Translations under genes and position numbers: made by a program
The notes under the pieces: model-generated
What the model saw: the letters and a program-made list of their open reading frames with translations, nothing else
Databases searched by the model: none
Told to the model about the DNA's origin: nothing
Virus record (IMG/VR): IMGVR_UViG_2695420596_000006
Span: 1 to 26,618 of that record
DNA from: a virus
Taxonomy: Duplodnaviria; Heunggongvirae; Uroviricota; Caudoviricetes
DNA: 26,618 bases
Direction: 5' to 3' (one strand)
Shown here: positions 2,396 through 26,618 of the stretch, piece by piece
How positions within the stretch are numbered: position 1 is the first letter of the stretch
How the letters are laid out: each line of letters opens with the position of its first letter

Positions 2396-2881
2396 CCGTC
2401 AGCCCTGCTCAACGAGTCCGCCACGCTGTTCCGCCGTAAGTATTACATCAACGGCAGCCATGCAGGCTTCATCATGTATATGACCGATGCCGCGCAGAAC
2501 CAGGAGGATGTGAACAACCTCCGCAACGCGATGAAAAGCGCCAAAGGCCCTGGCAACTTCCGCAATCTGTTTATGTACTCGCCTAACGGCAAAAAGGACG
2601 GACTTCAGATTATCCCGTTGTCAGAAGTCGCAGCGAAGGATGAGTTTCTGAATATCAAGAACGTGAGCCGTGATGACATGATGGCTGCGCACCGCGTGCC
2701 GCCGCAAATGATGGGGATTATGCCTAATAATGTCGGGGGATTTGGTGATGTGGAAAAGGCCAGCAAAGTCTTTGTCCGAAACGAGCTAATTCCGCTACAG
2801 AAGCGGCTGCAAGAACTTAACCAATGGGTTGGTGAAGAGGTAGCTCGCTTTGAATCATATTGTCTAGAACCAAGGGAATAA
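2396..2881 (+). pseudogene. Truncated portal protein (P2 gpQ-like) C-terminal fragment
   Basis: Open frame from about 2396 (ALLNESATLFRRKYYINGSHAGFIMYMTD...RVPPQMMGIMPNNVGGFGDVEKASKVF...) resembles the C-terminal part of P2-family portal proteins; no N-terminal part and no upstream start context. Confidence 0.6.
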
Positions 2882-2925
2882 ATGTACTGTTTGTTCAAAT
2901 TGAACACACAGTACTTTTTAATATA

Positions 2926-3765: not shown

Positions 3766-3775
3766 AAATGACTAT

Positions 3776-4417: not shown

Positions 4418-4434
4418 ATTACACCTCCCCGGTG

Positions 4435-5241: not shown

Positions 5242-5350
5242 GTCGCCCTCCTAATTTTAAAATCCATCAATAACGTTCTTTTCAATATAGTTTACATCTT
5301 GGTTGACACATTAACCATAACAAAGTTCCATCAAAACATCTTTTGATAAC
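5242..5350 (-). promoter_or_regulatory. Putative promoter/operator region of the three-gene cargo operon
   Basis: AT-rich; on the minus strand TTAATG-N19-TATATT precedes the RBS; 7-bp inverted repeat ATCAAAA-CATC-TTTTGAT at 5330..5347 may be an operator. Confidence 0.35.
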
Positions 5351-5440
5351 TTTATATTTAAACTACCGGGCGCGCGCTCGTATCCCCGCCACGCCTGCCC
5401 GCTTTATGTAGTGGTTTTCATGCACCTGCATGATCTACGC

Positions 5441-5466
5441 AAAAGCCCGCCAGTTCTGGCGGGCCT
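5441..5466 (-). terminator. Rho-independent terminator (minus strand) downstream of dinI-like gene
   Basis: GCCCGCC-AGTTCT-GGCGGGC hairpin; on the minus strand it is followed by TTTTG. Confidence 0.65.
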
Positions 5467-5599
5467 TAGCAAAAACGATCCTCAAACGATCATGCGATCT
5501 CATGCGGCATAGACATGCACTACAGAGCTAACGCCTCGCAAGGGCTCGTTGTTCAACCTTGCTGACGCCAGAAGCAAGTTCAGACGCCAGCAACGTTTC

Positions 5600-5833
5600 T
5601 TAATGCAGCCAGCTGTCGTCTTCCCACACCTTCTGCATAATTTTCATCACTTGTTTTCTTTCTTCGTCCTGTTGCAGCCCAGTCAGTTCCACACCGTTAG
5701 AGCTACCTTTGCGGATACGAATTACCGTTTTTGGATACAGTGGGCGCAGATTGCGGTAAAGCTCGGATTCAAGGGCGTCCAGGGTAGACTGGCTAATCTT
5801 CTGCTCTTTATCGATCATTATTTCAATGCGCAT
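5600..5833 (-). CDS. dinI: DinI-family protein
   Basis: 77-aa product from internal Met with GAGGTG RBS: MRIEIMIDKEQKISQSTLDALESELYRNLRPLYPKTVIRIRKGSSNGVELTGLQQDEERKQVMKIMQKVWEDDSWL, matching the DinI pattern (MRIEV...AL..EL..R....P...V.V........V.G...E.K..I..IL.E.WE..D.W). Confidence 0.85.
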   Translation of the reverse strand: MRIEIMIDKEQKISQSTLDALESELYRNLRPLYPKTVIRIRKGSSNGVELTGLQQDEERKQVMKIMQKVWEDDSWLH

Positions 5834-5843
5834 AAAAGTCACC

Positions 5844-6032
5844 TCAGCTGATGACATCCATTGAGCGGTTGTATTCGTGGCTTCTGATTTTTGCCATGAG
5901 TTCATCAGTCAATTCAGAAACCCACTGCAGAGCCAGCCCCTTCTCTTCATCACTACACTCACTAGCCGCTACAAGCTTAAGAAAAAAATCAATGCGCTGG
6001 AGCTTCAAAGACTCCAAAAAATAGTCCTGCAT
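5844..6032 (-). CDS. Hypothetical small phage protein (start uncertain; ORF extends to 6134)
   Basis: Internal ATG at 6032 preceded by AGGAGG; no recognisable motif. Confidence 0.4.
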   Translation of the reverse strand: MQDYFLESLKLQRIDFFLKLVAASECSDEEKGLALQWVSELTDELMAKIRSHEYNRSMDVIS

Positions 6033-6185
6033 CTTTCCTCCTATGACACCACAAGCAACACTGTATGCATAACCACTGTTTATATTTACAGCATATAATA
6101 ATCTTACTGATGTAAAACGTTTTTTTACGTTCATCAGCCTGATATGCCTGGTATTATTAAGAGCACGAATTGTTAACCCGCGTAA

Positions 6186-7232
6186 TTAATACAGGTTTCG
6201 CCACTTATCATCTTCCTGCAAACGCTGGTTCCGATAGAAGATACGCAGGCCTGCTCCTGACGGAATACTGCCGCCGCGAAGGAGTAAATCGACCTCTTTC
6301 TCGCTGCCATCAAATCCTCTGGACTTCAGTTCGTAGACGAGCTGCTGTCGCTGATGGTCTGTAATTCGCTGTTTGTAGTCTTTACGCCGTTTCGGTTTCA
6401 CCAGGCGTAACCTTGCAGCCAGTTCCCGGCGCTCTTTTTTGCTCATACTGTGCAGGTAATCGTGCAACTCCTTGTCATCCATGCGGGTAATGTCCGTCCT
6501 GGTATCCCCATCAGCTGATTTGTCTTTCCCTTGTTGGTTCAAATTTTCAGCAAGGGGACAGTTATTGCCACGAGTCCAAGGGGCGCAAGCGCCCTGGTCG
6601 GCTGACCGATGTTCAAGAACGGATGCCAGGTGATACTGGTCATCTTCAGTGAAACCATCAGTGTGATAGCCGGAAAACGTACCGTCATACGGCGGATCGC
6701 AATACACCACATCTCCCGCCTTCAACATCGCCAGCGTTTCATCAAAGCTGGCGCAGATAAACGTTGCTCGCTGGGCTTTTTCTGCAAATGTGCGAAGTTC
6801 TTTTTCAGGGAAATACGGATTTTTATAATTACCGTAGGGAATGTTGAAATGCCCGCTCTTGTTATAGCGACATAAACCACGGTAACCGTGACGATTGAGA
6901 TACAGGAAATATACCGCTTTCATGAAATCAGTAATTTCAGTGGAGTAATTAAACTCCTGCCTTATGTTGTAATAAGCCACCTCCCTGTTTGCGATCTCAA
7001 ATAAAACTCTGGCGCGAGATATAAACGATTCACAATCAGCGGCAACCTTTTTATAGAGGTTGATTAAATCAGGATTAATATCCGCAACCAGATAGCTGGG
7101 GTAATCCGTCTCCATCATCACAGCACAAGAACCCGCGAAAGGTTCAACCAGTCGCGGGCCAGCAGGAAGGTGTTTTTTCAGTTCGGACATAATGGCGGTT
7201 TTATTACCCGCCCATTTCAGGATGGTGCTCAT
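6186..7232 (-). CDS. dam: DNA adenine (N6) methyltransferase, Dam family, with C-terminal charged extension
   Basis: Start at [11 protein letters not shown] with AGGAGG RBS; motifs KWAGNK near the N-terminus and DPPY ([10 protein letters not shown]) are the Dam signature; roughly 100 residues of lysine/arginine/glutamate-rich sequence follow the methylase core. Confidence 0.85.
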
Positions 7233-7531
7233 ACAGCACCTCCTGCAATAACATATCCTAAAGCTTCTAATGGGGTTAATGAGCGAATTGATAGCATCAC
7301 CCATTGTTCTGAAACTGCCATGACGTCATTAACCGGAAGCACATGAGAGATAACCGCGGCCCATTCCCTACCCGTAAATACGCCATGCTTCCATTCGCAA
7401 AGAGAAAGAACATCACCAACTTTATAGCCACGATCGTCTTTACGAAGTTCAGCCGTCTTTTGACCTGCAACCACAGCGTTGAAATACTTAGGTGCAATTT
7501 TTAATTGATGGATACGCACAGCCCCTGTCAT
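7229..7531 (-). CDS. Hypothetical phage protein, ASCH/DUF3850-like
   Basis: Start at [42 protein letters not shown] with GGAGGTG RBS; the pattern resembles ASCH-like beta-barrel proteins found in prophages; assignment by eye only. Confidence 0.55.
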
Positions 7532-7755
7532 ACAGCACCTCCGTTGTAATGTTTGCCTTTCAGCTCTGCGATTTCCTGACAGGTAATGCAAAGCTGCACT
7601 CCTGGAATGGCGCGGCGGCGTGCTGGCGGAATTGGCGCTTCACATTCAATGCAAAGCACGCGAGACACGCCCGGTGTTTTGGCACGGGCAGCACGGATAT
7701 GGCGCTGGCGTTCTTCTTCAACGCGCTGCTGTACGAGATCCATTGCATCAGCCAT
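7528..7755 (-). CDS. TraR/DksA-family C4 zinc-finger protein
   Basis: 75-aa ORF with C-x2-C...C-x2-C ([27 protein letters not shown]), typical of phage TraR/DksA-like zinc fingers. Confidence 0.75.
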
Positions 7756-7994
7756 TAGTGGATCTCCTGCGCTTCGTTCTGGATTGCTTCAGCGGTCACA
7801 CGCAGCAGTTCTGCCGCTTCGACGTGGTTTAGCTGGCGGGATGTGATATGACACGCAAGACTATCAAGGCGGGCAGCCATTGCTTCAGCCCTTGCCCGGC
7901 GTTCTTCCAGACGAGCCTCTGTCAGTAAAATATTAAGCCCTGCGTCATCCGGTCCGGTTTTAGTCGTGAGGGTTTCAATATTACGCATAATCAA
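7755..7994 (-). CDS. Hypothetical phage protein (79 aa)
   Basis: ORF in the same-strand early gene string; no motif assigned. Confidence 0.45.
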   Translation of the reverse strand: MIMRNIETLTTKTGPDDAGLNILLTEARLEERRARAEAMAARLDSLACHITSRQLNHVEAAELLRVTAEAIQNEAQEIH

Positions 7995-8055
7995 TTCTCC
8001 TGAATTTAGATAAAGGGATGCCCGGCGGGTTTACGCCATTAATTTCATTAGCTGG

Positions 8056-8397
8056 TTAATTCGGCATGGTTAGCCGTCTGGGAAATAAGCTCACCACTGC
8101 ACGAAAATGATTCATTGCTTTAATCAACTCCCGCTTTTCGTCAGTGGTCAGCTCATTAATGCTGATGCTATGACGTTCAGCTGGAATTTTTGCCATAAAG
8201 AATATGGCAGCCAGTGCCCGTTTATTTTGTTCGCTATTGATATCCCGTGGATCACGCATATCTTTAATAAACCGCTCAAGCTCTGACTCAATATTCAGGC
8301 CAAAAACTTTCGCCCTTAACTCCGCAATGTGATTAAGTCCATTCAGGCGTTCACCGGGGCTTAATGGAACAGTCGCCGCAGCGCCATTAATTGCCAT
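8056..8397 (-). CDS. Hypothetical phage protein (113 aa)
   Basis: ORF in the same-strand early gene string; no motif assigned. Confidence 0.5.
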   Translation of the reverse strand: MAINGAAATVPLSPGERLNGLNHIAELRAKVFGLNIESELERFIKDMRDPRDINSEQNKRALAAIFFMAKIPAERHSISINELTTDEKRELIKAMNHFRAVVSLFPRRLTMPN

Positions 8398-8419
8398 AAT
8401 TCATATCCCCAAAACGCAA

Positions 8420-8644
8420 CTATCGTTCTTTGTTCTTACGGTAACGTTCAAGAGGAGATACATTTTTTCGTATCGTCTCTTTAACCTGCTCTCCCCGTAA
8501 AAACGTCCCATCCTTTAGCGTGAAAAAGTAACTGCCATCGCCCGACAACGACGGATAACAACAGAGCAAATCATCTTCAGGTACTGAATAACTCTCCCCT
8601 CTGTAACGAAACTGATAAACCACTTCACTTTCCGCTGCATACAT
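8420..8644 (-). CDS. Hypothetical phage protein (74 aa)
   Basis: ORF in the early gene string; overlaps an alternative-frame ORF (8515..8841), so which frame is real is unresolved. Confidence 0.35.
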   Translation of the reverse strand: MYAAESEVVYQFRYRGESYSVPEDDLLCCYPSLSGDGSYFFTLKDGTFLRGEQVKETIRKNVSPLERYRKNKER

Positions 8645-8818
8645 TTTGACTTTCTCCGTTTCCTCGTGGTCAATTCAGACAGCAATTCATCTTGTGAATG
8701 ACATGGATGCCAGCGTTTACCATCCTCACCCATGATCCAGCCGTGACCGTAGTGCATTGCCGGACTTTGTTTTACCAGCAGCGATGCAAATGATGGTTCT
8801 TTCGTCAGCATAAGCACC

Positions 8819-9328
8819 TCACAGCAATCCGAATGAAGCACCGAGACCAGTTACGGTATCAACTGCACTTGCCATCGCAGGATTAGCCTGTAAACGGGCC
8901 TGCAATGAAACAGCAGCCAGCGCCATCAGTCGTGTAACAGAGTTAATGCTGCTGATCGCATCACGACGGCCTGTACTGGTTTTTACATCGCCAGAAACCA
9001 CACCAGCCGCGACACGCCCTATCTCTGCAGTTGCACTCATGACGTAATGCGGTAGTTTCTCTTTTGCCACCTCATTAATCGGAACACATGGCAGACAATG
9101 AATCTGTGCCAGAAAACCATCTACCAGCGTTGAATCTTCAGTCAGATCGGTAAGTAACCAGATATCTCGTGCAGTGAGCTGATGCGGTTGTTCCGGGTTC
9201 AGCTTGTTACGCAGCGTCTGGACGTTCATTCCCGCGAGTTCTGCTAGCTTCGCCATATTGTGACGTAGTGCAAAAGCTCTACAGGCTTCATCAAAATGCG
9301 GTTGTTTGGAAATCTTGTAATCAAACAT
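8819..9328 (-). CDS. cII: CII-type lysogeny-establishment regulator (186 CII-like)
   Basis: 169-aa ORF immediately downstream of the apl-like gene on the lytic strand; size and position match phage 186 CII; HTH-like segment (MAKLAELAGMNVQTLRNKL). Confidence 0.7.
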   Translation of the reverse strand: MFDYKISKQPHFDEACRAFALRHNMAKLAELAGMNVQTLRNKLNPEQPHQLTARDIWLLTDLTEDSTLVDGFLAQIHCLPCVPINEVAKEKLPHYVMSATAEIGRVAAGVVSGDVKTSTGRRDAISSINSVTRLMALAAVSLQARLQANPAMASAVDTVTGLGASFGLL

Positions 9329-9360
9329 GGTGCTCCCTTAGAAAGTTCCCATAATTGAAA

Positions 9361-9603
9361 CTACTTACCAACAATGACGCGGAAGTTGGAATGACCGAGG
9401 GATTCACGGACCTGATCAGTTTTGTACATTAGATAACGCAGGCTTACGCGGCCTTTGTTTTTTTCTTTCTTGACCATGTACTTAGCGAGTTGACCATGGT
9501 GAATTTTTTGGTAAACAGACCCGCGGGAAATCCCTTCCCATTCAGCGAATTCAGCAGGCGTAGCCATCTCTTTTGGTACACGAATTGAAATATCTGTGCT
9601 CAT
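9361..9603 (-). CDS. apl: Apl/Cox-type excisionase and transcriptional regulator
   Basis: 80-aa ORF, first gene of the leftward transcript, divergent from the repressor gene; HTH-like segment (ATPAEFAEWEGISRGSVYQKI); position matches 186 apl / P2 cox. Confidence 0.6.
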   Translation of the reverse strand: MSTDISIRVPKEMATPAEFAEWEGISRGSVYQKIHHGQLAKYMVKKEKNKGRVSLRYLMYKTDQVRESLGHSNFRVIVGK

Positions 9604-9705
9604 AGTGCAGTATCTCTTGGTTTAAGCTCGTTTTATGATGTTTAACCCCAACTTCTAAACTCTCATATTAGAAGTTAAATACAAAAATACGATCTCGTTA
9701 TTGGA
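9604..9705. promoter_or_regulatory. Lysis-lysogeny switch region (divergent/face-to-face promoters and operator)
   Basis: About 100-bp AT-rich intergenic region between divergent apl-like and cI-like genes; perfect 9-bp inverted repeat AACTTCTAA-N9-TTAGAAGTT at 9650..9676. Confidence 0.55.
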
Positions 9706-10356
9706 TTGTCAAATGGAGAGTTCATCTTGAAGATTAATACAGGTGCAAATACGGGAGGGAGAGAGACCATCAAAAGGCTGATGACAGCCTATGGTTTCAA
9801 CACTCAGATAGCGTTGGTTGAACACCTCGAAGCATCAAAAAGCACCATGGCAAACAGGATGTTACGTGATAGCTTCCCTGCTGACTGGGTTATTCAATGT
9901 GCCCTTGAAACAGGTATTTCTCTTCTTTGGCTGACAACGGGCCAAGGGGAAATGTATCCTCAAACAGAAGAAAAAAATAAGTTCAAAAACGAGAGTTCAC
10001 CTACAGTTCGCCCCCTTTCAAAAATAGTTATCCCATCAGTAAGGCAGGCAACCATTGAGAACGGAACTCTCGAAGAGATGGGGGATGTTTTCCTTGATCA
10101 GACTTTGATACCCGGAAAAGCCGAATATTGTTTGTACGTCAAAGCTAACGACGGCAATTACATTGTTGATACATCAACAAAACAGCTTAGTAACGGAATT
10201 TGGCTCATAGACATCGACGGTATGAAAAACATCGTCAAAATTGCGCGCATACCTGGAAACAAAATAGTAGTTAACCAAGATGACACGTCATTTGAATGTT
10301 CTGTAGATGATGTGGAAGTCGTAGGACGTGCAGTCAAAGTAATCAAGAACCTCTAA
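9706..10356 (+). CDS. cI: CI-type immunity repressor (186 CI-like)
   Basis: 216-aa ORF beginning at a TTG (an in-frame ATG at 9781 is an alternative start); N-terminal HTH region and position directly upstream of int on the lysogenic strand, as in 186/P2. Confidence 0.7.
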   Translation: MSNGEFILKINTGANTGGRETIKRLMTAYGFNTQIALVEHLEASKSTMANRMLRDSFPADWVIQCALETGISLLWLTTGQGEMYPQTEEKNKFKNESSPTVRPLSKIVIPSVRQATIENGTLEEMGDVFLDQTLIPGKAEYCLYVKANDGNYIVDTSTKQLSNGIWLIDIDGMKNIVKIARIPGNKIVVNQDDTSFECSVDDVEVVGRAVKVIKNL

Positions 10357-10359
10357 CTT

Positions 10360-11379
10360 ATGACCATCAGAAAACAGCCGAACGGAAAATGGTTGTGTGA
10401 GTGCTATCCCAATGGACGCAATGGTAAGCGCGTGCGTAAGCAATTTGCTACCAAAGGCGAAGCTATTGCATTTGAAAGCTTCACAATGGAAGAAGTGAAC
10501 AAAAAACCATGGCTGGGGGAAAAGGAAGATCGGCGACATTTATCAGAATTAATTGAGCTGTGGTATTCCCTGTATGGTCAAACACTCACAGACCCCAAGC
10601 GCCTCATGGCGAAACTTAGTATTATCTGTAATGGTCTAGGCGATCCCATCGCTTCAGAACTGACAGCCGGTGACTTTACGAAATACCGCGAAGCACGGTT
10701 AAAAGGTGAAGTACGAAATGAAGATGGCACGCTTATGTCGCCCGTTAAGCCCCGCACGGTAAACCTTGAACAGCGCAATCTATCATCTGTTTTTGGTACA
10801 CTGAAAAAGCTGGGCCACTGGTCAGCCCCCAACCCGCTTGCCGGGCTGCCAACATTTAAAATTGCTGAGAGTGAATTGGCGTTCCTGACCCCGGAAGAAA
10901 TTAAACGTCTGCTGGATGCCTGTGCTGATTCTCAAAGCTCTAGTCTGCTGACGGTTGCAAAAATATGTCTGGCCACCGGCGCGAGATGGAGTGAAGCCGA
11001 AAACCTGCAGGGCCATCAATTGTCAAAATACCGGATCACCTACACCAAAACTAAAGGCAAGAAAAACCGAACCGTACCGATATCTCAGGAGCTATATGAA
11101 GAACTCCCCAAAAACAGAGGGAAACTATTCACGCCCTGCAGAAAAGCTTTTGAGCGCGCAGTAAAACGAGCCGGTATAGACCTGCCTGAAGGCCAGTGCA
11201 CACACGTGTTGCGCCATACATTCGCCAGTCACTTCATGATGAATGGCGGAAACATATTGGTACTACGCGATATTCTTGGTCACTCTGATATAAAAATGAC
11301 GATGGTTTATGCTCATTTTTCGCCAGATCATTTAGAAGATGCTGTAACAAAAAATCCACTGGCTATGTTGGGATACTGA
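10360..11379 (+). CDS. int: Tyrosine integrase, P2/186 type
   Basis: 339-aa ORF; C-terminal catalytic region HVLRHTFASHFMMNGGNILVLRDILGHSDIKMTMVYAHF contains the R...H-x-x-R...Y tyrosine-recombinase signature; starts 4 nt after the cI stop. Confidence 0.9.
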   Translation: MTIRKQPNGKWLCECYPNGRNGKRVRKQFATKGEAIAFESFTMEEVNKKPWLGEKEDRRHLSELIELWYSLYGQTLTDPKRLMAKLSIICNGLGDPIASELTAGDFTKYREARLKGEVRNEDGTLMSPVKPRTVNLEQRNLSSVFGTLKKLGHWSAPNPLAGLPTFKIAESELAFLTPEEIKRLLDACADSQSSSLLTVAKICLATGARWSEAENLQGHQLSKYRITYTKTKGKKNRTVPISQELYEELPKNRGKLFTPCRKAFERAVKRAGIDLPEGQCTHVLRHTFASHFMMNGGNILVLRDILGHSDIKMTMVYAHFSPDHLEDAVTKNPLAMLGY

Positions 11380-11381
11380 TA

Positions 11382-12413
11382 ATGGAAAAAAGCATTAGCA
11401 CATTTATGTACCTATCCGTTTTATTAGGTTGTATATTCTTATTTATAAAATATCGACTTTATGTTCTCGATCATAGAAGCTTGTTCCAACAACCCTTGTT
11501 CTGGGCTGCAATAGGCCTACCTTTATTCACCAGCCTTTACTTTGGTTCTTTTGTCTGGATAGATAAAATACACTCTTTTAGTCTTACAAGTCACGGTTAT
11601 GAGAGATTTTTAGATATCTCGAAATTACCATTACTCATCCTTGCATCTGCAGTACCTTTAGTTTCAATAGTAAACAACCTACACAGAACCAAACAAACAG
11701 AAAAACAGATCTCAGAGGCAGAAAGGAAAAACAGGGTAGATTTATATTACAACCACATGAAATTTCATCTTGATTTATATAAAAAAATCGAAGGAAAAAG
11801 AATAGGCAGCTACTACCCGGTTCAGGAAGCTCAAGCTGAAGCAATCTACCAACATTTTATAAAACATCCACAAGAACTATATAGAAAAGCATACCCACAA
11901 TCTACGCCTGATGATTCTCAACAATTAGATATTAATGAGCAATTTGTTATTGATTTACACAAATGTTGGGTAGAAATCAACGCAAGACTCAAGCAATTAT
12001 CCGAGAGTGAAAATCAAATACATCCTACAGAGGAACTTTGCACAACAAAGATGAGAATATTTGTAGGCGTTATGATTATTTATGAAAAAACTTGTAAACT
12101 GTTGTGTTTAGGTGGATTTCATTATAAAAAGTCATTTGTAATAAATGATAGTTATAATAAATACCAAGTTTATTCACCATTTTATGATTTTGGCACTCTG
12201 TACGAATCACTGCAATCCTTAGAAGAGATAACCTACGCCTTCTTGGATACTTGCAGAAATGAAGTGGTAAACTTGTACTTCCCTATAGAAGATAAAATTT
12301 TGATATATGGTGAAGGGATTCTAGAGAATTGGTTCAAGTATTCTCAGTTCTTGATCACTATAGCTTATCAACCCGCCAAGATGTCTCGCTTACCCCAGCT
12401 GAGACGCGATTGA
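11382..12413 (+). CDS. Hypothetical membrane-anchored protein (343 aa), moron gene between int and att
   Basis: ATG 2 nt after the int stop (TGA-TA-ATG); three hydrophobic segments in the first ~100 residues then a ~240-residue soluble domain with no motif assigned; visibly more AT-rich than neighbouring phage genes. Confidence 0.65.
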   Translation: MEKSISTFMYLSVLLGCIFLFIKYRLYVLDHRSLFQQPLFWAAIGLPLFTSLYFGSFVWIDKIHSFSLTSHGYERFLDISKLPLLILASAVPLVSIVNNLHRTKQTEKQISEAERKNRVDLYYNHMKFHLDLYKKIEGKRIGSYYPVQEAQAEAIYQHFIKHPQELYRKAYPQSTPDDSQQLDINEQFVIDLHKCWVEINARLKQLSESENQIHPTEELCTTKMRIFVGVMIIYEKTCKLLCLGGFHYKKSFVINDSYNKYQVYSPFYDFGTLYESLQSLEEITYAFLDTCRNEVVNLYFPIEDKILIYGEGILENWFKYSQFLITIAYQPAKMSRLPQLRRD

Positions 12414-12529
12414 TGATGGCGACATTTTGGCGGCAGAGCTTTAAAAACAGATAAAACTGTCAAACACCACATAACACTAACGTATTGTTTTTAAACATAA
12501 ATCATTATTTTTTCTGTAGTAAAAATGGT

Positions 12530-12574: not shown

Positions 12575-12608
12575 ATTTTTGATATATTGAAGTTCAGTGA
12601 AGTCTATC

Positions 12609-12643
12609 AAGCCCGCATGGAACCAGCCTTGCGGGCTTTTTTA
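12609..12643 (+). terminator. Rho-independent terminator downstream of the second ssrA-end copy
   Basis: AAGCCCGCA-loop-TGCGGGCTT hairpin followed by TTTTTTACG. Confidence 0.7.
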
Positions 12644-12740
12644 CGTCTATAGTAGTCTACCGAGAATTGCTAGAATCTACTCGTTATGGCACCCTTTTTG
12701 GGACCCAACACAAAGGGTCCAAAACATGAGGGTCCCAAAC

Positions 12741-13970
12741 ATGGCAAAAATCGCTAAGAAGCTCACTGACACTGAAATCAAAAGCACCAAACCTGCCGAG
12801 AAAGAGGTTAACCTTTTTGACGGCGATGGTTTGCTCCTGCGAATCGCCCCCTTAGCGAAGGGAGGAAAGAAAAATTGGTATTTCAGATATGCAGTGCCTG
12901 TGACCAAAAAGCGAACTAAGGTGAGCTTAGGAACCTATCCTCACCTTACACTTGCGAAGGCACGAGCTTTACGTGATGAGTACTTGTCGTTGCTTGCAAA
13001 TGGTATAGACCCACAAGTTCATAACACCCACAAAGCCAATGCCCTTAAGGATGCAACGGAACATACATTTCAAGCAGTAGCCAAGAAGTGGCTTGATGAG
13101 AAAGTCAAAACGTCAGGCATCTCCCAGGATCATGCTAACGACATCTGGCGAAGCCTAGAGAGAAATATCTTTCCAACGTTGGGTGATACCCCCATTAAGG
13201 AGATTCGCCCTAAAATGCTTAAACAGCATTTAGACCCCATAGAAAAACGAGGTGTCCTTGAAACACTTCGCCGCGTCATATCCCGCCTGAATGAAATTTT
13301 CCGCTATGCAGCAACAGAAGAACTCATAGAATTCAATCCGGCTGACAACCTGGGGCAACGGTTCAGCAAGCCAAAAAAACAGAATATGCCAGCATTACCC
13401 CCTTCCGAACTCCCCCGCTTCCTGGTTGCTCTAAACAATGCTTCTATCCGTTTAGAAACAAGGCTACTGATTGAGTGGCAACTTCTCACATGGGTTCGCC
13501 CTGGTGAAGCTGTTCGCACAAGATGGTCAGATATTGATATAGAAACCAGCATGTGGAACATCCCGGCGGAGTTTATGAAAATGAAGAAGCCTCACAAAGT
13601 TCCACTGAGCAAAGAATCTTTGCGAGTCTTGGATTCAATGAAAGCCATCAGCGGGCATAGAGAGTGGGTTTTTCCCAGTATCAAAGCTCCACTCAATCAC
13701 ATGCATGAACAAACAGCTAATGCGGCTATAATCCGTATGGGCTTCGGAGGTGAGCTTGTAGCTCATGGTATGCGATCAATCGCTAGAACGGCGGCTGAGG
13801 AGTGTGGCAAGTTTAGAACTGATGTCTTAGAAGCCGCCCTTGCCCACTCGAAAAAAGATGAAATAATTGCAGCCTACAATCGTGCAGAGTATCTCACAGA
13901 ACGTGTGGTTCTCATGCAATGGTGGAGTGACTATGTTTCGTCTCAAAAATACAAAGTTATTGCCGCATAA
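12741..13970 (+). CDS. int: Tyrosine integrase, P4/CP4-57 type
   Basis: Start at MAKIAKKLTDTEIKSTKP (ORF track begins further upstream at 12597, inside the terminator); N-terminal arm-binding pattern and C-terminal H-x-x-R ... Y region (HGMRSIARTAAEE ... IIAAYNRAEYLTER). Confidence 0.88.
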   Translation: MAKIAKKLTDTEIKSTKPAEKEVNLFDGDGLLLRIAPLAKGGKKNWYFRYAVPVTKKRTKVSLGTYPHLTLAKARALRDEYLSLLANGIDPQVHNTHKANALKDATEHTFQAVAKKWLDEKVKTSGISQDHANDIWRSLERNIFPTLGDTPIKEIRPKMLKQHLDPIEKRGVLETLRRVISRLNEIFRYAATEELIEFNPADNLGQRFSKPKKQNMPALPPSELPRFLVALNNASIRLETRLLIEWQLLTWVRPGEAVRTRWSDIDIETSMWNIPAEFMKMKKPHKVPLSKESLRVLDSMKAISGHREWVFPSIKAPLNHMHEQTANAAIIRMGFGGELVAHGMRSIARTAAEECGKFRTDVLEAALAHSKKDEIIAAYNRAEYLTERVVLMQWWSDYVSSQKYKVIAA

Positions 13971-18640: not shown

Positions 18641-19546
18641 TTATTTAGATGCTAAAATAGTATTTTTATTGAATTTTTCATCAGCATCTGTAAGCTTTTT
18701 CATTATTAAAGCAGGGGCTATATCCTGAAGCTCCGTAGATTTTATGAAAAAATAATTACAAAGGTAAATTATATTATTAAGATTAATTGGTATATCAATA
18801 TTATAATCTAACATTAACGATAACAAACGATCTCTGTCAATTCTATAAAACTTTTTACCAAGCTCTTTCTCATTAATTATTGAAATTATCTTTTCATCAA
18901 GCTTATCGTCCATTCTCAATCTTAATTTATTTCTTAGCATAGCGGACCATGCGCTTGACTTATAATTTCTATATGCTAAATCCTCAAATAACTTCATTAT
19001 TCCCCAATCAGATGTTTCCAAAGAGGCGTAAATTCCATTCAGCGCGCGACTAAGGTCATTATGCTCAACCCAATCCTCTTTGCACTTATAGCGTAGATCA
19101 TGCTCAACTTCATGCCATCCTTCAGATAAAATAGTTCTAAATTGGACTTCAAAAGTAGTATCAATATAAGAATATTTCTTTAATAAGACACTATCATTTG
19201 ATAATACTTCTGGTAACTTAAAGACGTAATTGCATCGAGTTGCCGCAAAGAGATTAGCCGTGGTTTCGTCTACGGTTTTAGATTCAATTTCGAATAATTT
19301 CTCCAGTGTTTTTTGAGCAATAAATAAATCATCAGGAAAATATAATATTATCCTAACCCCAAATAAGTCTTGAATTTTTTTACCATCCTCTGAGTATTTA
19401 TTAGGCTCTTTTTCATATTTCTTAATTATTGAGCTTTCTGATTTTGTCCTCGAAAAAAAACGATAAAGTAATCCAATACGATTAAGTTCATCTTCTATAT
19501 CTTTTTGCAAACTTTGAATAATTCGCAATTCATTCCCGTTATACAT
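18641..19546 (-). CDS. RelA/SpoT-homologue (RSH) nucleotidyltransferase-fold protein, toxSAS-like (301 aa)
   Basis: Start ATG overlaps the upstream stop (ATGA); contains DLFGVRIILYFPDD and EVQFRTILSEGWHEVEHDLRYK, matching the synthetase-domain motifs D-x-x-G-x-R and E-x-Q-x-R-T...W-x-E...H-x-x-x-Y-K; C-terminal ~140 residues unassigned. Confidence 0.8.
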   Translation of the reverse strand: MYNGNELRIIQSLQKDIEDELNRIGLLYRFFSRTKSESSIIKKYEKEPNKYSEDGKKIQDLFGVRIILYFPDDLFIAQKTLEKLFEIESKTVDETTANLFAATRCNYVFKLPEVLSNDSVLLKKYSYIDTTFEVQFRTILSEGWHEVEHDLRYKCKEDWVEHNDLSRALNGIYASLETSDWGIMKLFEDLAYRNYKSSAWSAMLRNKLRLRMDDKLDEKIISIINEKELGKKFYRIDRDRLLSLMLDYNIDIPINLNNIIYLCNYFFIKSTELQDIAPALIMKKLTDADEKFNKNTILASK

Positions 19547-21651
19547 CAGAAATTCCTCCCAAGAATTGCTTTAATCTCTGATATTCTTGCCATGTTAAGT
19601 TCAAGGAACGAACGCTTGTCTGGCGTAAGTAAAAGACCGTCTTTCCTCAATTTATCTAAAGAATGGAGTATTTCACTTAACTGAAATTGATTGTTGTTAG
19701 AACATAAGCCTTTTATAGGCCGATGCTTATGATAGCTAACACTCCCTCTGGGACAGAACTTCTCTAAGATGTAAATATCACAATCTGTAATATCGTGATC
19801 ATTTTCACTGTTTATCTCGACAGATTTTTTATTAATAGCATCATTGTCACATTCACATCCCAAAAAATAAATATCTTCCCTACCACTTAATTCGTTAAAA
19901 CTACAATCTATAAAAGAACAGTTCACGAATGTAACGTTTTTATAATTACCACAGGTAAATATGCTGCTAAAAAACGAACAATCAACAAAGATAGTATCAT
20001 GTATTATATTTATATCGCCTAAAGAAAGTTTTGATATAGACAATTGCTCAACACTATCATTTTTTAAATCTAATGGAACTTTTCCTATAAGCAAATGACT
20101 ATAAAGGATTTTATCATTACCTGACATAAAATATAAAGCAAACTCTAAGCTATGCCAAAGTAATTCTTTTTCATCATCGATCCTCGGCATATAAGATTGC
20201 ACTGCTGGTTCTATAAAACGTTTATCACCAATCCATTCATTTGACTTATCATTAATAATATTTTCAGAAACAAAATTACCAAGAACAAATTCATTAACAA
20301 ATCCAATACCTTGGTTTTCTGAGCCTGACCGATCTAATAGAGCATGCGATGCTAATTTATTAACTAATTCGTCAGTAGTTGGTCTTTCATCTACAGTATA
20401 AAGCTTTCTTGTAGCCTCCAAGAGTTGTTGATTCTTTTCAGTTATGACTAACGATATATACTCTCTAGACTCAGATGTGTAGTTACCCTCGACCATGTCG
20501 TCAGCTATTATTTTTAGTATAGTATATTGATCTTCAATAGACATTAATAAATCTTGTCTTTTTCTTTCTCGCTCAAGCATTGAATCAAAATACTTCCTCA
20601 CTATAGTTGTTGGGTCGCTTATAACTTTATTAAAGTCGGTGTCGTCGATGCATCTTAGAAATGATAGCAGTACAGGGTTTGATAATTTGTTAAGAGGAAA
20701 TCCTGTCGATGAAATTTCATCTAAACGTTGACCTGGAAGCCAGTCTTCAATTTGTGGTTCATGAATTCTTATTCTTATCACATCAAAATCTTCTTGATGT
20801 GATGCTATCCACTGATGGAATTCATCTCCGTCAAATATAGCTGTTCTTCGAGTTGTCAAAACCACTTTTGCACTATCAGTTAGAAGCTCACTTATTGTTT
20901 CCAGCATTGGCTCTGTTTTTTCATAATTATTTTCAATTCCGTTTGTACTTTCATGCAATAGTTCATCAAACCCGTCAAGTATAACTGGTACATTTCCTGC
21001 TCTTATTTCATTCCTTACTAAGGCTGAGCTTAACAAAGGAAAACTTCTATCAATTTCATCTAATAGTACATACCTGAATATTTTTGCTTGCCTATTCCTT
21101 GATAGTTCTGAAAATAATGGTATTTTCCCTATATTGTTAACTATAATCTCCCTCAATAATTCATACGCCGTGCAAGTCTTTCCAAAACCGGCTGCAGCCT
21201 CAATCAAAAACAGAATTGGACGCCTATGTTGTATTCTCTCTAATATTTCCGTAACAACATTAGCTTCGCCAATAACACCATTTAAGTAATATTTTGAATT
21301 TATGTAGGAATAAGTTGCAGTAGGTGAGTGAATTTTTACAATTGAATCTGTGAAAGTATTATAATCTTTAATCAACCTTTCTTTAGTTGAATCGACGCTA
21401 AAGAAGCCATTAAATAATTCCTTATGTGCTTCTTCATAAGACTGATATTTTTTAATTTGACATGCATAACCTAACTGCCTATATTCTTCAAAGGTTTGAT
21501 TTACATTAACCTCATTATTTAGTGGAAGTATGTCCGCGTTATGGTAGTGCCCTGTTTTAATAGAATATACAGCAATACTTTCGTTACCTGTATTTTCTTC
21601 AGTAAAACCAAACCTTTTATATATCTCTGTAAGTTTGCTTTTTCGTAACAT
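19546..21651 (-). CDS. NACHT-type STAND NTPase with C-terminal pentapeptide-like repeats (about 701 aa)
   Basis: Start at ATG preceded by AGGAGG (ORF track adds 3 codons from a GTG); Walker A LIEAAAGFGKT and Walker B VPVILDGFDELLHE (h-h-h-h-D-G-h-D-E, NACHT-typical); C-terminal FVDCS/FFSSI/FTCGN/YKNVT/FVNCS/FIDCS/FNELS five-residue periodicity; N-terminal ~130 aa unassigned. Confidence 0.8.
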   Translation of the reverse strand: MLRKSKLTEIYKRFGFTEENTGNESIAVYSIKTGHYHNADILPLNNEVNVNQTFEEYRQLGYACQIKKYQSYEEAHKELFNGFFSVDSTKERLIKDYNTFTDSIVKIHSPTATYSYINSKYYLNGVIGEANVVTEILERIQHRRPILFLIEAAAGFGKTCTAYELLREIIVNNIGKIPLFSELSRNRQAKIFRYVLLDEIDRSFPLLSSALVRNEIRAGNVPVILDGFDELLHESTNGIENNYEKTEPMLETISELLTDSAKVVLTTRRTAIFDGDEFHQWIASHQEDFDVIRIRIHEPQIEDWLPGQRLDEISSTGFPLNKLSNPVLLSFLRCIDDTDFNKVISDPTTIVRKYFDSMLERERKRQDLLMSIEDQYTILKIIADDMVEGNYTSESREYISLVITEKNQQLLEATRKLYTVDERPTTDELVNKLASHALLDRSGSENQGIGFVNEFVLGNFVSENIINDKSNEWIGDKRFIEPAVQSYMPRIDDEKELLWHSLEFALYFMSGNDKILYSHLLIGKVPLDLKNDSVEQLSISKLSLGDINIIHDTIFVDCSFFSSIFTCGNYKNVTFVNCSFIDCSFNELSGREDIYFLGCECDNDAINKKSVEINSENDHDITDCDIYILEKFCPRGSVSYHKHRPIKGLCSNNNQFQLSEILHSLDKLRKDGLLLTPDKRSFLELNMARISEIKAILGRNF

Positions 21652-21770
21652 TAAACTCACCTCCTGATATTTTTCGCAATGATGCTATAGTCGCTGTATG
21701 AACTTTTAATATAATATTACAAAAACCATCTACATAGCTACCGCCTAAGCAATAATAGCTATGTAGAGAT
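21652..21770 (-). promoter_or_regulatory. Putative promoter/operator of the NACHT-RSH operon
   Basis: AT-rich upstream region; perfect 11-bp inverted repeat CTACATAGCTA-N15-TAGCTATGTAG at 21730..21766. Confidence 0.35.
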
Positions 21771-22846: not shown

Positions 22847-23039
22847 CACCATACCTAAGCCCCAAAACTAAAGCACTACGGCTTGATTGGGCTGGCGTAA
22901 GTCTGCACACCGAGCCTTTTGCACTATAAATTTCTCAGAATATATAACCAATATGTCAGTAAAGGTTTAAAGTGAATGATTCGTTTTGGCAGGATACTTA
23001 CGATTATCACAACACTATCACATATTGTGTCTCACACAC

Positions 23040-23344
23040 AAAGTTGAAAATCAAAACAGAAGTAAAAGATATAATATTCCCCTGCTAAAATACGATTCAC
23101 TTCAAACATTTAATATTAATGGGATATATTTCCCCCTAAGCAATGGGGAAAAACGCCCATCAATCAACCATGAAATAAAAATAGCACTTTTTGCAAACTA
23201 TGAATTTATTTATATAAAACATCACATTAAATTAGTTTATTCAAAAGAAAACGCTTGCTTATTTTTTATTATTAAAAATAAATTTGATTTTTATTTATTT
23301 GATAATATACATTCATTTCATCAAAATAATAAAGGAGAATAAAA
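23040..23344 (+). promoter_or_regulatory. Extremely AT-rich upstream region of the ankyrin operon
   Basis: About 300 bp dominated by A/T runs ending in the RBS AAAGGAGAA; the ORF predicted here (22986..23342) is low-complexity. Confidence 0.35.
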
Positions 23345-23785
23345 ATGAAAAAACAAAACTATTCAACCCTGACAAGTTACCTATCTAAAACAAAAAAGAA
23401 TACAGATCTCTACCGTCTGTATAACCCTCACTTTTCAATATTCTGTAAAAATAGCATTGAAGATCATGTTTTTTATCTTAATTATTTTTCCAGACATATG
23501 GTGACGGAAAGAAATATTCTGACCATATTTGCTATCCATACCTTTTTCTCTTATAGCATGGAAAAAAAAGACACCATAAAAGCTTTTACCCGTTTTCTTA
23601 AAGAGGAGAATCACGATACTTTCTATCAGTCATTTTCTTTTCGTGGCTGCAATATCATTTACACAAACAAAAAAGGCGAAGTGAAAGAGATCTCATGGTT
23701 TTCTTTTTCACGGATCTATGACGAGATCATTAAGATAAAAGAATATGAATACAACAATAATACCTGGCACAAAACGACCGCTTAA
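23345..23785 (+). CDS. Hypothetical protein (146 aa), first gene of ankyrin operon
   Basis: ATG preceded by AAAGGAG; no motif assigned; AT-rich. Confidence 0.6.
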   Translation: MKKQNYSTLTSYLSKTKKNTDLYRLYNPHFSIFCKNSIEDHVFYLNYFSRHMVTERNILTIFAIHTFFSYSMEKKDTIKAFTRFLKEENHDTFYQSFSFRGCNIIYTNKKGEVKEISWFSFSRIYDEIIKIKEYEYNNNTWHKTTA

Positions 23786-23799
23786 AAAGGAGAACGCCC

Positions 23800-24753
23800 A
23801 TGAGTAACTATACAGAAGATAATTTATTTGACAGCAAAACTAAAAAAGACGTCCAGAATTGCATTGCTGCAGGCATTGACATTAACACACTTAATGAACA
23901 CGGTGAAAACGCCCTTTTCGGTTGCGACAGTATCGGGGCTTTAAAAGCCATGATTGAAGCAGGCATAGCGCTGAACCATACAGATTGTTATGGTAATAAT
24001 GCCCTGTTTAGCAGAAAAAGCCCACGTGCAGTGAGGCTATTGATAAAGTCAGGTATTAACGTTCACCACAAAAATAATAAAGGCCAGTCCTGTCTTCACT
24101 GGCAGCGCTACGCCATAGATTGTGCGGAACTCCTCATAAACGCGGGCATTGATATCCACAGCACAGATAACGAAGGACAAACGCTTCTTTATGACCTCCT
24201 CGATCATGACGTCTTTGATTACTGGGTAAATAAAGGGTGTGACATAAACCACAGAGATTATGGTGGCAAAGCGGTGCTGGATCTTCCGACTGACAACGAG
24301 TGGTGGATATATGATTTCAGTATTAATGCCCTCAAACGCCATGTTGATAGAATAGACAGCACGCCAGTATTATTTAAACATGTTTCAACTGAGGCTTTGC
24401 CTCTAATTGCTTTGCTTCATGAAAAAGGGCGTAATATCCTTATCGCTGAACACTGTTCCTTCGCATTATATGTCAAAAACATGAAGTACTTCTTTACCTC
24501 ACTGAAAAAATATACCGATATCAGTCATGTTCAGTTTTATAATTGTTATCATGATAAACATATTGGTATCTACACCGGCATAGAAAGTGTGAAATGGTTT
24601 ATTCGAAATGGTATCCGAATGGACGACGATATACTCAGACAGCGTTCTGACTCCGATAAGATTTTTTCTTATATCGCAGCAAGAGAGAAAAAAGACCTGT
24701 TAAAAGAAATGAAGCCAGAGATCCCCCGTTCATCTGTACGAAAAAGACTCTAA
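23800..24753 (+). CDS. Ankyrin-repeat protein (317 aa)
   Basis: ATG preceded by AAGGAG 14 nt after the previous stop; about four ankyrin-like repeats (GENALFGCDSIGALKAMIEAGIALNHTDCYGNNALF...LLIKSGINVHHKNNKGQSCLHW...LLINAGIDIHSTDNEGQTLLYD...); C-terminal ~150 aa unassigned. Confidence 0.75.
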   Translation: MSNYTEDNLFDSKTKKDVQNCIAAGIDINTLNEHGENALFGCDSIGALKAMIEAGIALNHTDCYGNNALFSRKSPRAVRLLIKSGINVHHKNNKGQSCLHWQRYAIDCAELLINAGIDIHSTDNEGQTLLYDLLDHDVFDYWVNKGCDINHRDYGGKAVLDLPTDNEWWIYDFSINALKRHVDRIDSTPVLFKHVSTEALPLIALLHEKGRNILIAEHCSFALYVKNMKYFFTSLKKYTDISHVQFYNCYHDKHIGIYTGIESVKWFIRNGIRMDDDILRQRSDSDKIFSYIAAREKKDLLKEMKPEIPRSSVRKRL

Positions 24754-24827
24754 AACTCTGGAGTAAACAACCCTTTTCTTAGTCTGCAAGGATTCATTTA
24801 ATGACCATTAATCTGATATGTCCTCGT

Positions 24828-24855
24828 GGGTATACTATTTGTCAAATGGTATACC
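24828..24855. promoter_or_regulatory. Candidate oriT-associated inverted repeat upstream of mobC
   Basis: GGTATAC-N13-GTATACC inverted repeat about 100 bp upstream of the MobC-like start. Confidence 0.25.
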
Positions 24856-24954
24856 TTTTTTAATCCAGATAATTAAATTATTTATCCCGTAACAACTTGA
24901 CTTATTCATTTCATCGGTTATCTGTAGTAATAAACATGAAATAAAAGGATAACT

Positions 24955-25362
24955 ATGAACAGTGACATGAGTAATGATGATGATATAACCAGAGTATCAA
25001 AACGCGGTAAATTCCATACTGACAAATTTCCTGAGAATGAAATACGACATCACTGCATCAGTGTCAGATTAAATGAAGAAGAATTAATTATTCTCGACAG
25101 TAAAAGAGGTCAGTATAAAAAAGGAGAATGGCTCAGGATGGCTTCCCTGAATAAACTCCCGCCGGTTCTGCCAGAAATCAATCGTGAAGCATGGATAAAA
25201 CTTGGCAGCCTTTCACAGGATTTAAACTACCTGTTGAGTCATCTCGACAGCAAAAGCCCTGACAGCGAACTGACCCGTACAGAACTCTTCGCCCTGCGCA
25301 GACAAATCAAAACTCTCAGGGATCACCTTATTCCCTCAACATTTCTGGAGTCAGACCCATGA
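24955..25362 (+). CDS. mobC: MobC-type mobilisation accessory protein
   Basis: 135-aa ORF with AAGGA RBS; central SVRLNEEELIILDSKRGQ segment resembles the MobC/MbeC pattern (S-V/I-R-L-T/N-x-E-E); directly upstream of and overlapping a relaxase gene. Confidence 0.65.
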   Translation: MNSDMSNDDDITRVSKRGKFHTDKFPENEIRHHCISVRLNEEELIILDSKRGQYKKGEWLRMASLNKLPPVLPEINREAWIKLGSLSQDLNYLLSHLDSKSPDSELTRTELFALRRQIKTLRDHLIPSTFLESDP

Positions 25363-26618
25363 AAGGCATGCAGAAAATAAAAAGGGGTAAACAATTCACA
25401 GGTGTGGTTATTTATAGCCTGAAGTCAGGTTCTCACCACAAAATCACGCCTTATGTCATCGGTGGCAACATGACGGGTAGCACTGCTGCTGAGCTTATAA
25501 GTGAATTTGAAGGCACCCGACTGCTGCGTCCCGATGTCGCCAAACCTGTCTGGCATAATTCACTTCACCTGCCAAAGGGTGAGAAACTGTCAAACAGACA
25601 GTGGGCAGCATTCGCTGACGATTATATGGCCCGAATGGGCTTCACTGACACCCATCTTCGCTGCTATATCATGCACGATGATCCGGATGGGCAGCATATT
25701 CATATCATTGCAAGTCGTATTAACATGGTCGGTGGAAAACTGTACCTGGGGAAAAATGAAAATCTTATCGGCACACGGATTATCAGTGAGCTGGAGAGAG
25801 TACACGGCCTCACCGAAACTACGGGTGTAACCGGCAGTAGCCGCCAGGATAAAAGGAAGCCTTCCCGTAATGAACTGATGATGGCAGAACGCACAGCAGC
25901 TCCCTGCCCTAAGTCACTGTTGCAGGCCCTGCTCGACAATGCATTAACACACCATCCCGATTTACTAACCTTTGTTCGCTTACTGGAACAGGAAGGAGTG
26001 ACCTGCAAACCCAATATCGCCACTACGGGTAAAATGAGTGGATTTTCATTTCAATACCAGGGTATTGCCTTTAAAGCATCTCAGTTGGGTAAAAAATATG
26101 GCTGGTCTTCCCTGCAAGCACTGATTGATTTTACGCCTGAGCATCTGAGTTTACTGAAAGAAGCCCAGAGGCCAATAGAACCTACAACCGCGCCAGTGCC
26201 AGTGCCAGTGCCAGTGCCAGTGCCAGTGCCAGTGCCAGTGCCAGTGCCAGTGCCAGTGCCATCATGCGAGTCTGAAGAGCAGGCTGCAAACCGGGAAACG
26301 ATTCTGGAGAAAATCCATCAGCTTGAAGAAAAAATTCGTCTGGAAAGACAACAGGAGACAGTGGGTATCATCCAGCTCAGGAGCAATCTGCACAATACAG
26401 CTCGTCAGATACCCCGCCAGCGTCGTCTGTATTCATGGCTTGTATTGCTCGTCCATATTGTGGCACTTCTCAGGCGCAGAGGCATGTCTCTGTTACATGC
26501 CACTGCACATCCTTTCCACCAAATCCTCCACCTACATATTCTGACACCCTGTCATCCCATGACAACAAATACCAATAAAGAACAATCATTTAAAAACAAC
26601 AACCATCCTGCACCATAA
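25359..26618 (+). CDS. mobA: MobA/MobL-family relaxase with internal (PV)11 linker
   Basis: Start overlaps the mobC stop (ATGA); N-terminal relaxase motifs WHNSLHLP and histidine cluster HDDPDGQHIHIIASRIN; in-frame PVPVPV... linker; stop codon is the last triplet of the window. Confidence 0.75.
   Translation: MKGMQKIKRGKQFTGVVIYSLKSGSHHKITPYVIGGNMTGSTAAELISEFEGTRLLRPDVAKPVWHNSLHLPKGEKLSNRQWAAFADDYMARMGFTDTHLRCYIMHDDPDGQHIHIIASRINMVGGKLYLGKNENLIGTRIISELERVHGLTETTGVTGSSRQDKRKPSRNELMMAERTAAPCPKSLLQALLDNALTHHPDLLTFVRLLEQEGVTCKPNIATTGKMSGFSFQYQGIAFKASQLGKKYGWSSLQALIDFTPEHLSLLKEAQRPIEPTTAPVPVPVPVPVPVPVPVPVPVPVPSCESEEQAANRETILEKIHQLEEKIRLERQQETVGIIQLRSNLHNTARQIPRQRRLYSWLVLLVHIVALLRRRGMSLLHATAHPFHQILHLHILTPCHPMTTNTNKEQSFKNNNHPAP
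26193..26261 (+). repeat. Hexanucleotide tandem repeat (CCAGTG) x 11.5 inside the relaxase gene
   Basis: Eleven perfect CCAGTG units plus CCA, in frame, encoding (Pro-Val)11-Pro. Confidence 0.95.

Follow-up and report, generated by a model that had tools for sequence, protein, structure and literature searches.

Contingency loci of Haemophilus, Neisseria and Campylobacter are slippage repeats whose unit is not divisible by 3 or lies in a promoter, and they act by on/off switching. Long perfect microsatellites are scarce in Escherichia coli, and in-frame variable-number tandem repeats (VNTRs) have mostly been discussed for surface proteins. We know of no description of an interdomain microsatellite in MobA/VirD2-type relaxases, and no microsatellite-encoded spacer in a relaxase was found in a limited literature search. 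In the coupling protein TraD, the C-terminal extension carries a Gln/Pro (QQP) repeat, with 5 such residues in F and 23 in R1 (PMC3245843). TonB's proline-rich domain is described as an extended polyproline-II spacer of Glu-Pro and Lys-Pro repeats (PMC12204202; Kohler et al., 2010, cited therein). At the transfer-messenger RNA (tmRNA) hotspot of E. coli, integrative mobilizable elements that carry defence genes as cargo have been reported, and the island described here fits these (PMC10121019). The DNA analyzed (the window; 26,618 nt, positions 1 to 26,618 of IMG/VR virus record IMGVR_UViG_2695420596_000006) ends in a relaxase gene of that island, and within this gene lies a perfect array of the hexanucleotide CCAGTG. 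The array is, with good confidence, a genuine hypermutable coding microsatellite (VNTR), which would change by slippage and mostly by tolerated drift in a length-tolerant Pro-X spacer.

Array structure and copy number

Direct reading of positions 24800-26618 placed 11 exact copies of CCAGTG at 26193-26258 (+ strand), followed by a partial twelfth unit, CCA, at 26259-26261 and then by TCA. Tandem Repeats Finder returned a single array (26192-26261), scored at 140, with 11.7 copies of a period of 6, 100% matches and no indels, and no second long array in the window. The 12-mer CCAGTGCCAGTG (≤1 mismatch) occurred 10 times, always in the array, against 0.02 occurrences expected from 100 dinucleotide-preserving shuffles, so that short perfect units run head to tail well above chance, as in a coding microsatellite. 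The relaxase open reading frame (ORF) occupies 25359-26618, and as the offset of the array from its start (26193-25359 = 834) is a multiple of 3, the units are read CCA GTG, that is, Pro Val. The translation around the array is ...EPTTA(PV)11PSCESEEQ..., and (CCAGTG)11 with its partial CCA (26193..26261, +) encodes (Pro-Val)11-Pro, residues 279-301 of the relaxase. The coordinates, unit, copy number and Pro-Val frame proposed in the initial annotation were all correct, and the repeat lies in the frame of the 419-aa ORF and not outside it. Hairpin-driven instability was not supported: the single-stranded array folds at -8.4 kcal/mol (z = +0.7), which is no unusual hairpin and fits plain slippage.

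Copy number was read directly from eight complete-chromosome E. coli loci and determined from match spans in the 60 best complete genomes. The eight loci held 4, 7, 8, 9, 10, 11, 12 and 13 units, on flanks that differed from the window at 2-3 of about 1,950 nt. By match span, the 60 chromosomes carried 4 units (1 genome), 6 units (8), 7 units (17), 8 units (11), 9 units (6), 10 units (3), 11 units (6), 12 units (4) or 13 units (4). Nei diversity calculated from these counts was about 0.85; the counts are not independent, because some of the genomes are clonal replicates. Clonal sets were stable, with 7 units in MRE162 UK, FRA and NOR and 9 in both Z217-2 and Z217-4. For a pig-farm clone, five Res13 isolates had 7 units and Res13-Lact-PER12-33-A had 8; the latter showed 0 mismatches to ER02-39 over 40.5 kb and differed from it by one GCCAGT unit and a 15-bp indel, a single instance of within-clone unit change, taken from assemblies. 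The 120 best protein homologues (81-96% identity) were all full length (399-413 aa), almost all in 2-aa steps, and their linkers differed in the count of PV, PM or PE dipeptides. Exact-unit polymorphism between near-identical sequences and recent change within a clone are the behavior of a VNTR: whole 6-nt units are gained or lost much faster than the flanks acquire point substitutions, and the sole change in the product between alleles is the count of Pro-Val dipeptides in a segment predicted to be unstructured. It had been proposed that a 6-nt unit would let linker length vary between isolates without a frameshift, unless copy number proved identical in all homologues. Length did vary in 6-nt steps (4 and 7-13 units as read; 4 and 6-13 from the spans in the 60 chromosomes), copy number differed across related genomes, and every allele examined was a full-length ORF.

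A different allele spectrum was obtained from a 15-billion-protein collection. On the common backbone it contained 2, 3, 4 and 5 Pro-Val units in 9, 50, 179 and 326 contigs, respectively, and none with 6-13; in the related Pro-Ala clade (described below) pure runs never exceeded 5 units, and several 'partial' proteins of 272-277 aa stopped just before the array. RefSeq complete genomes encode 7-27 units (both clades), with 7-10 and 12 Pro-Val units on the exact common backbone; the 13-unit form has one substitution more. It seems that long pure arrays were lost, truncated or collapsed somewhere in the collection, and its allele spectrum was abandoned because the ceiling of 5 pure units contradicts the RefSeq genomes. 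The 5-unit allele is itself real, as a complete chromosome in GenBank carries it, and so do a k111 MEGAHIT contig and a contig of 1.5 Mb. The ceiling in both clades and the proteins that end near the array indicate that tandem arrays can be mishandled in some data sets, but an assembly or sequencing artefact as the source of the copy-number differences is very improbable: many independent projects supplied the complete chromosomes in which the alleles occur, their differences are always exact multiples of 6 nt made of perfect units, clonal replicates agree (MRE162 x3, Z217 x2, five Res13 isolates), and at 24-78 nt the arrays fit within ordinary reads.

The unusual Leu/His-rich composition noticed after the linker is real, and the stretch concerned (aa 357-400) contains a conserved Arg-flanked hydrophobic helix (predicted). 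The frame change suspected there was absent. When the C-terminal region was aligned with the 120 homologues the frame was unchanged, and column identity to the window in successive 20-residue blocks after the linker (aa 301-400) was 0.94, 0.94, 0.90, 0.92 and 0.85. In a codon alignment of the window and 17 species, third codon positions varied most both before and after the array; at aa 401-419 variability was equal at all three positions, and these last roughly 19 residues look unconstrained. In-frame conservation and the codon-position pattern indicate purifying selection on the relaxase frame on both sides of the array, and a frameshift or pseudogene downstream of the array was rejected on the same grounds. 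A phase-variation (contingency) switch, or an out-of-frame C-terminus, is suggested by a superficial likeness to contingency repeats and by the odd composition of aa 357-400, and is scarcely credible given that the 6-nt unit lies inside the ORF, that all alleles examined are full length, that the C-terminus is conserved in frame, and that stop codons interrupt the +1 frame in at least 6 of 18 related species and, directly after the array, the +2 frame in 18 of 18. A nested same-strand gene, like RSF1010 mobB within mobA, was also rejected because of the stops in both frames; those of the +1 frame, in at least six related species, mean that no conserved gene lies there. This frame is open for 117 codons (26194-26544) in the window and in some relatives, reads (Gln-Cys)n through the array and runs on to 26544.

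The linker across clades and the nature of the spacer

A survey of one genome per species identified four hexamer arrays, all perfect and all at one shared position in the relaxase linker. CCAGTG (Pro-Val) was present in 5-18 copies in Leclercia, Phytobacter, Citrobacter, Enterobacter and others; CCAATG (Pro-Met) in 5-7 copies in Atlantibacter and an Enterobacteriaceae metagenome-assembled genome; CCTGCT (Pro-Ala) in 11-16 copies in a clade about 53% identical (Kluyvera, Erwinia); and CCTGTC (Pro-Val in other codons) in 5 copies in Erwinia tracheiphila. The Pro-Ala clade was found in 88 complete E. coli genomes, always on the chromosome, where spans in groups of equal identity differed by multiples of 6 nt. 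E. coli O55:H7 RM12579 has (CCTGCT)8 and O55:H7 TB182A has (CCTGCT)26, with 0 mismatches in 1,128 nt of the flanking gene; E600003 has 7 units and F719 has 25, again with 0 mismatches in 1,128 nt. In UPEC132, S. diarizonae and E. ruysiae, which form a third clade at about 58% identity, the linker reads ...SAPAPC... without an array, and the array is therefore dispensable. In an 82%-identity subclade, the linker of the commonest E. coli allele is degenerate and interrupted; that of E24377A, for example, reads CCT GCA CCT GTG CCA TTA ACA GTG CCA ATG.... Taken across these genomes, a variable Pro-X spacer appears to be a family-wide trait. Citrobacter meridianamericanus BR102 carries three paralogous relaxases (70-82% identical to that of the window), with 10, 17 and 18 CCAGTG units, and its co-resident islands could exchange sequence.

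Synonymous diversity was compared along the gene. In the Pro-Val clade it was 0.02-0.08 in most windows of aa 286-360 (26214-26438), with 0.157 at aa 331-345, and 0.16-0.36 elsewhere in the gene, being normal directly upstream of the array; amino-acid diversity was ordinary across the low-synonymous stretch. No overlapping ORF accounts for this stretch: besides the same-strand frames dealt with above, a conserved antisense ORF was rejected. The antisense frame was open in 18 of 18 Pro-Val-clade sequences, an outcome that synonymous codon shuffling gives 16% of the time; it is closed in distant clades, and diversity is normal in a longer antisense stretch that is also open (aa 79-185). The suspected source of the low diversity is a history of recombination, or of a sweep, in the C-terminal segment. 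The same pattern, low from the array to about 60 codons downstream and normal upstream, would fit a breakpoint, and with it the proposal that the DNA array is itself functional (as a protein-binding array, part of the origin of transfer, oriT, or a recombination hotspot shuffling N- and C-terminal modules) and the dipeptides are incidental. We consider such a role quite improbable. The hexamers of the different clades are unrelated, which leaves no conserved DNA motif; the third clade has no array; synonymous diversity downstream of the array is normal in the Pro-Ala clade; and neither an Rfam match nor an excess of promoter- or terminator-like sites was found.

The placement of the array in the protein was assessed with an AlphaFold2 model built from a 57-sequence alignment. 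In the model, the relaxase core is folded at aa 40-150 and is followed by a second folded domain of the N-terminal module, made of helices and a beta-sheet (aa 181-270; 25899..26168, +), which is the best-predicted part with a predicted local distance difference test (pLDDT) score of 76-88. The segment that contains the array (aa 272-305; 26172..26273, +) is predicted to be unstructured, with pLDDT of about 35 and no secondary structure. It precedes a C-terminal helical region (26274..26477, +) consisting of a long helix at aa 306-350 and the Arg-flanked hydrophobic helix at aa 353-373 (LYSWLVLLVHIVALLRRR); the highest Kyte-Doolittle window of the relaxase is at aa 361-379. This C-terminal region is Arg-rich, predicted to be helical and kept in frame among relatives, and it leads into a tail (aa 378-419; 26490..26615, +) predicted to be disordered, the last roughly 19 residues of which are poorly constrained. 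Lying in a disordered segment between the folded aa 181-270 and the helix at 306-350, the array would form an interdomain spacer, in agreement with the proposal of the initial annotation that it separates the N-terminal catalytic and C-terminal regions. With alternating Pro-X residues between domains and no regular secondary structure in the predicted model, (PV)11P has the features of a polyproline-II-type spacer. Residues 272-306 matched the TonB proline-rich region (E = 0.006), a match driven by composition. PDB sequence and profile searches with the relaxase were empty, and a whole-chain Foldseek search of the model against the PDB gave nothing at E ≤ 0.001.

The length changes would arise by replication slippage, that is, slipped-strand mispairing. 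In E. coli, MutS-dependent mismatch repair handles loops of up to about 4 nt and 6-nt loops are poorly recognised; as such loops largely escape repair, the arrays could drift in a repair-proficient host. In the protein, (Pro-X)n would serve as a spacer that is stiff, extended and polyproline-II-like, as TonB's is (PMC12204202). With about 3.1 Å for each residue, a run of 4-13 Pro-Val units would be roughly 28-84 Å long, and one of 27 Pro-Ala units roughly 165 Å. The job of the spacer would be to keep two modules apart at a loosely constrained distance, so that most of the variation would be tolerated drift rather than a switch.

Several points weigh against this reading. Copy numbers were taken from public assemblies, and slippage was deduced from their pattern; we likewise infer that drift in spacer length is tolerated. 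The structure model is of modest quality, as its mean pLDDT of 61.6 indicates, and has no significant PDB match. The E. coli alleles cluster at 7-8 units, and common descent, a bias in mutation or stabilising selection could each lie behind this. Finally, Pro-X periodicity is kept despite different codons, which suggests selection at the protein level and leaves room for selection on length. The last point is also the starting point for a spacer acting as an adaptive, tunable ruler, in which length is under selection and the hypermutable array would let the relaxase quickly re-tune the reach between the oriT-bound catalytic module and a C-terminal docking or translocation region to suit different helper conjugative machineries. 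Such a ruler would account for Pro-X arrays of CCAGTG, CCAATG, CCTGCT and CCTGTC at one position in several clades and for their perfect purity up to 26 units, the Arg-rich helical C-terminal region would suit it, and F-like TraD coupling proteins have a variable Gln/Pro repeat by their relaxosome-contact domain (PMC3245843). It is nevertheless doubtful, since a sister clade works with essentially no spacer, since 4-13 or 7-26 units coexist on identical backbones without compensating changes, and since mutation dynamics alone predict purity and recurrence once a few identical Pro-X codon pairs are present in a tolerant linker. An evolved evolvability device, in the form of a graded (not on/off) contingency locus that arose convergently, through different codons, in several clades and rapidly re-sets the distance between catalytic and C-terminal regions, is unlikely; if real, it would let islands change from one helper conjugative system to another or evade interference encoded by helper or host.

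The hypermutable microsatellite places a VNTR in a cytoplasmic enzyme that processes DNA and that, as with other relaxases, is itself expected to leave the cell via a type IV secretion system, and one linker position has been colonised repeatedly by different Pro-X hexamers across the Enterobacterales. The locus is a highly discriminating marker (diversity as calculated above) for the few percent of strains with these islands. Assembly and protein-clustering pipelines can be misled by it, as alleles differ by up to 36 residues and one collection is without pure alleles of more than 5 units. The naturally occurring alleles form a series that starts with essentially no spacer (APAP) and reaches 27 Pro-X dipeptides; it could be used to probe how much spacing a relaxase needs between nuclease module and C-terminal region and whether this spacing is tuned to helpers.

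The relaxase gene and its island

The relaxase ORF (25359..26618, +; 419 aa) begins with ATG, and its TAA stop ends on the last base of the window. It matched Pfam PF03432 (MobA/VirD2-like nuclease) at aa 32-151 (E = 2.5e-22, 80 bits, cutoff 24.6), and this nuclease domain (25452..25811, +) includes the motif H106-x-D108...H113-x-H115. The candidate catalytic Tyr19 (25413-25415, +) stands directly upstream of the domain. Y19, H106, D108, H113 and H115 were invariant in 56 aligned relatives (51-90% identity), and we infer that they form the catalytic Tyr and a histidine-triad metal site. Both the domain match and the unchanged residues bear out the reading of this ORF as a relaxase. Against the NCBIfam models for TraI/MobA(P), Bacteroides MobB and MbpB it scored 51.6, 57.6 and 41.6 bits (cutoffs 250, 400 and 400), which suggests a protein related to these subfamilies yet a member of none. 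The relaxase had 2,960 homologues. Codon 70 (25566-25568; nt 25567) is CAC (His) in the window and CGC (Arg) in 7 of 7 near-identical E. coli loci translated; residue 70 is Arg in 56 of 56 aligned relatives and in 250 of 257 collected homologues, R70H being private to the window, and this copy of the relaxase may be impaired in function.

Immediately upstream, a 135-aa ORF (24955..25362, +) overlaps the relaxase start by 4 nt (ATGA) and contains an ISVRLNEEEL motif. It was always the immediate upstream neighbor of the relaxase in all related loci, and had no Pfam or NCBIfam match. From its position it is probably a MobC-like relaxosome accessory protein; the nearest plasmid relatives of the relaxase (43-50% identity) adjoin annotated mobC genes. 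Between an ankyrin gene and the MobC-like ORF, at 24828-24856, is an inverted repeat of 13 bp (GGTATACTATTTG / CAAATGGTATACC) with a T-run after it, which scores as terminator-like, could be an operator or part of oriT, and is the sole oriT candidate. Rfam and promoter/terminator scans of 24700-26618 gave nothing credible.

Among 5,426 complete E. coli genomes the locus was matched at 173 places in 171 genomes, on the chromosome in every case and never on a plasmid. No near DNA match was found among 72,556 plasmids, and a plasmid origin was rejected on these two results; the best relative in the plasmid database was a 3.6-kb Salmonella record with 71% protein identity. The first part of the window (1-12415) starts with smpB (1-483) and, at 698-1060, the gene for tmRNA. 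Next comes a P2-like prophage segment, a mosaic with only patchy similarity (84-98%) to the same-site prophage of strain 300709; prophage mosaic and island are therefore two mobile elements that occupy the tmRNA hotspot in tandem. The place taken in strain 300709 by an anti-phage dCTP deaminase is held in the window by an ORF at 11382-12413 (343 aa, no Pfam match). A tyrosine integrase with three integrase domains is encoded at 12597-13970, and in Res13 strains the integrase lies directly after ssrA. Other genes of the island are a serine recombinase, two ParB/RepB-like genes and ankyrin-repeat genes, together with the MobC-like ORF and the relaxase; no type IV secretion system genes are annotated in it. 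With an integrase near ssrA, a relaxase and no pore genes, the gene content fits that of an integrative mobilizable island beside the tmRNA gene. Membership of the PIME family (core int, alpA, repA, trbJ, trbL; bioRxiv 10.64898/2026.01.12.698999) was rejected, as the gene set of the island differs.

At 18641-21660 (- strand), a RelA/SpoT-domain gene (301 aa) is adjacent to a 704-aa gene with a NACHT-associated inactive restriction-endonuclease domain, and the pair is probably anti-phage cargo. The RelA/SpoT gene is intact in the window and in Res13 strains and is annotated as two fragments in strain 300709. Comparison of E24377A with window positions 22986-26618 indicated a conserved mobilisation backbone (ankyrin gene, 146-aa ORF, ankyrin gene, MobC-like ORF, relaxase, and 90-aa and 128-aa ORFs) and different upstream cargo, with type I restriction and Kiwa in E24377A and NACHT and RelA/SpoT in the window. 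Judged by gene content, the elements appear to be a modular defence-island family. Within the island, the 15-bp indel of the Res13 pair lies at the edge of an IS2 copy (locus position ~14447), and in strain P13-6 (NZ_CP080223.1) IS2 is annotated under the match to the MobC-like ORF and relaxase, the span of which is about 1.3 kb above the query. The island is eroded by insertion sequence elements in some lineages.

Comparison with known systems

RSF1010/R1162 MobA and its small-plasmid relatives, MobA/VirD2-type (HUH) relaxases with a MobC-like partner, share with this relaxase an N-terminal PF03432 domain, the N-terminal Tyr, the HxDx...HxH motif and a small overlapping upstream gene. The relaxase differs from that type in being chromosomal, in having no primase domain, and in its C-terminus, which is helical, Arg-rich and without a family match.

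TraD is likewise a protein of the conjugation machinery with a short proline-containing repeat that varies in length between close relatives and lies by a contact domain. It is, however, a coupling ATPase with a tripeptide motif, and its variation is between plasmids and is not that of a perfect microsatellite among near-identical strains; hexanucleotide purity or convergent units have not been reported for it. TonB resembles the relaxase linker in its alternating Pro-X composition and in having a stiff extended spacer between two functional parts. In contrast, it is a non-homologous periplasmic membrane force transducer in which X is charged, not Val, Ala or Met, and which has no perfect microsatellite in E. 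coli.

The E. coli loci used for multiple-locus VNTR analysis (MLVA), CVN014, CVN015, CVN016 and CVN017, are six-base arrays that vary among close isolates with comparable diversity (PMC3407997, PMC8143711). CVN014 is present in nearly all strains, whereas the array of the window rides on an island (Pro-Val clade in 171 of 5,426 complete genomes, Pro-Ala clade in 88). Identity with a locus of the generic E. coli MLVA scheme (GECM-10) was rejected, as 0 of 10 primer pairs (primers from PMC8143711) matched the window or 48 kb of a related locus at ≤3 mismatches.

With contingency loci, finally, the relaxase array shares slippage in a perfect intragenic array, and it differs from them in its 6-nt unit, through which protein length alone changes. 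The array behaves as a VNTR and not as a contingency switch.

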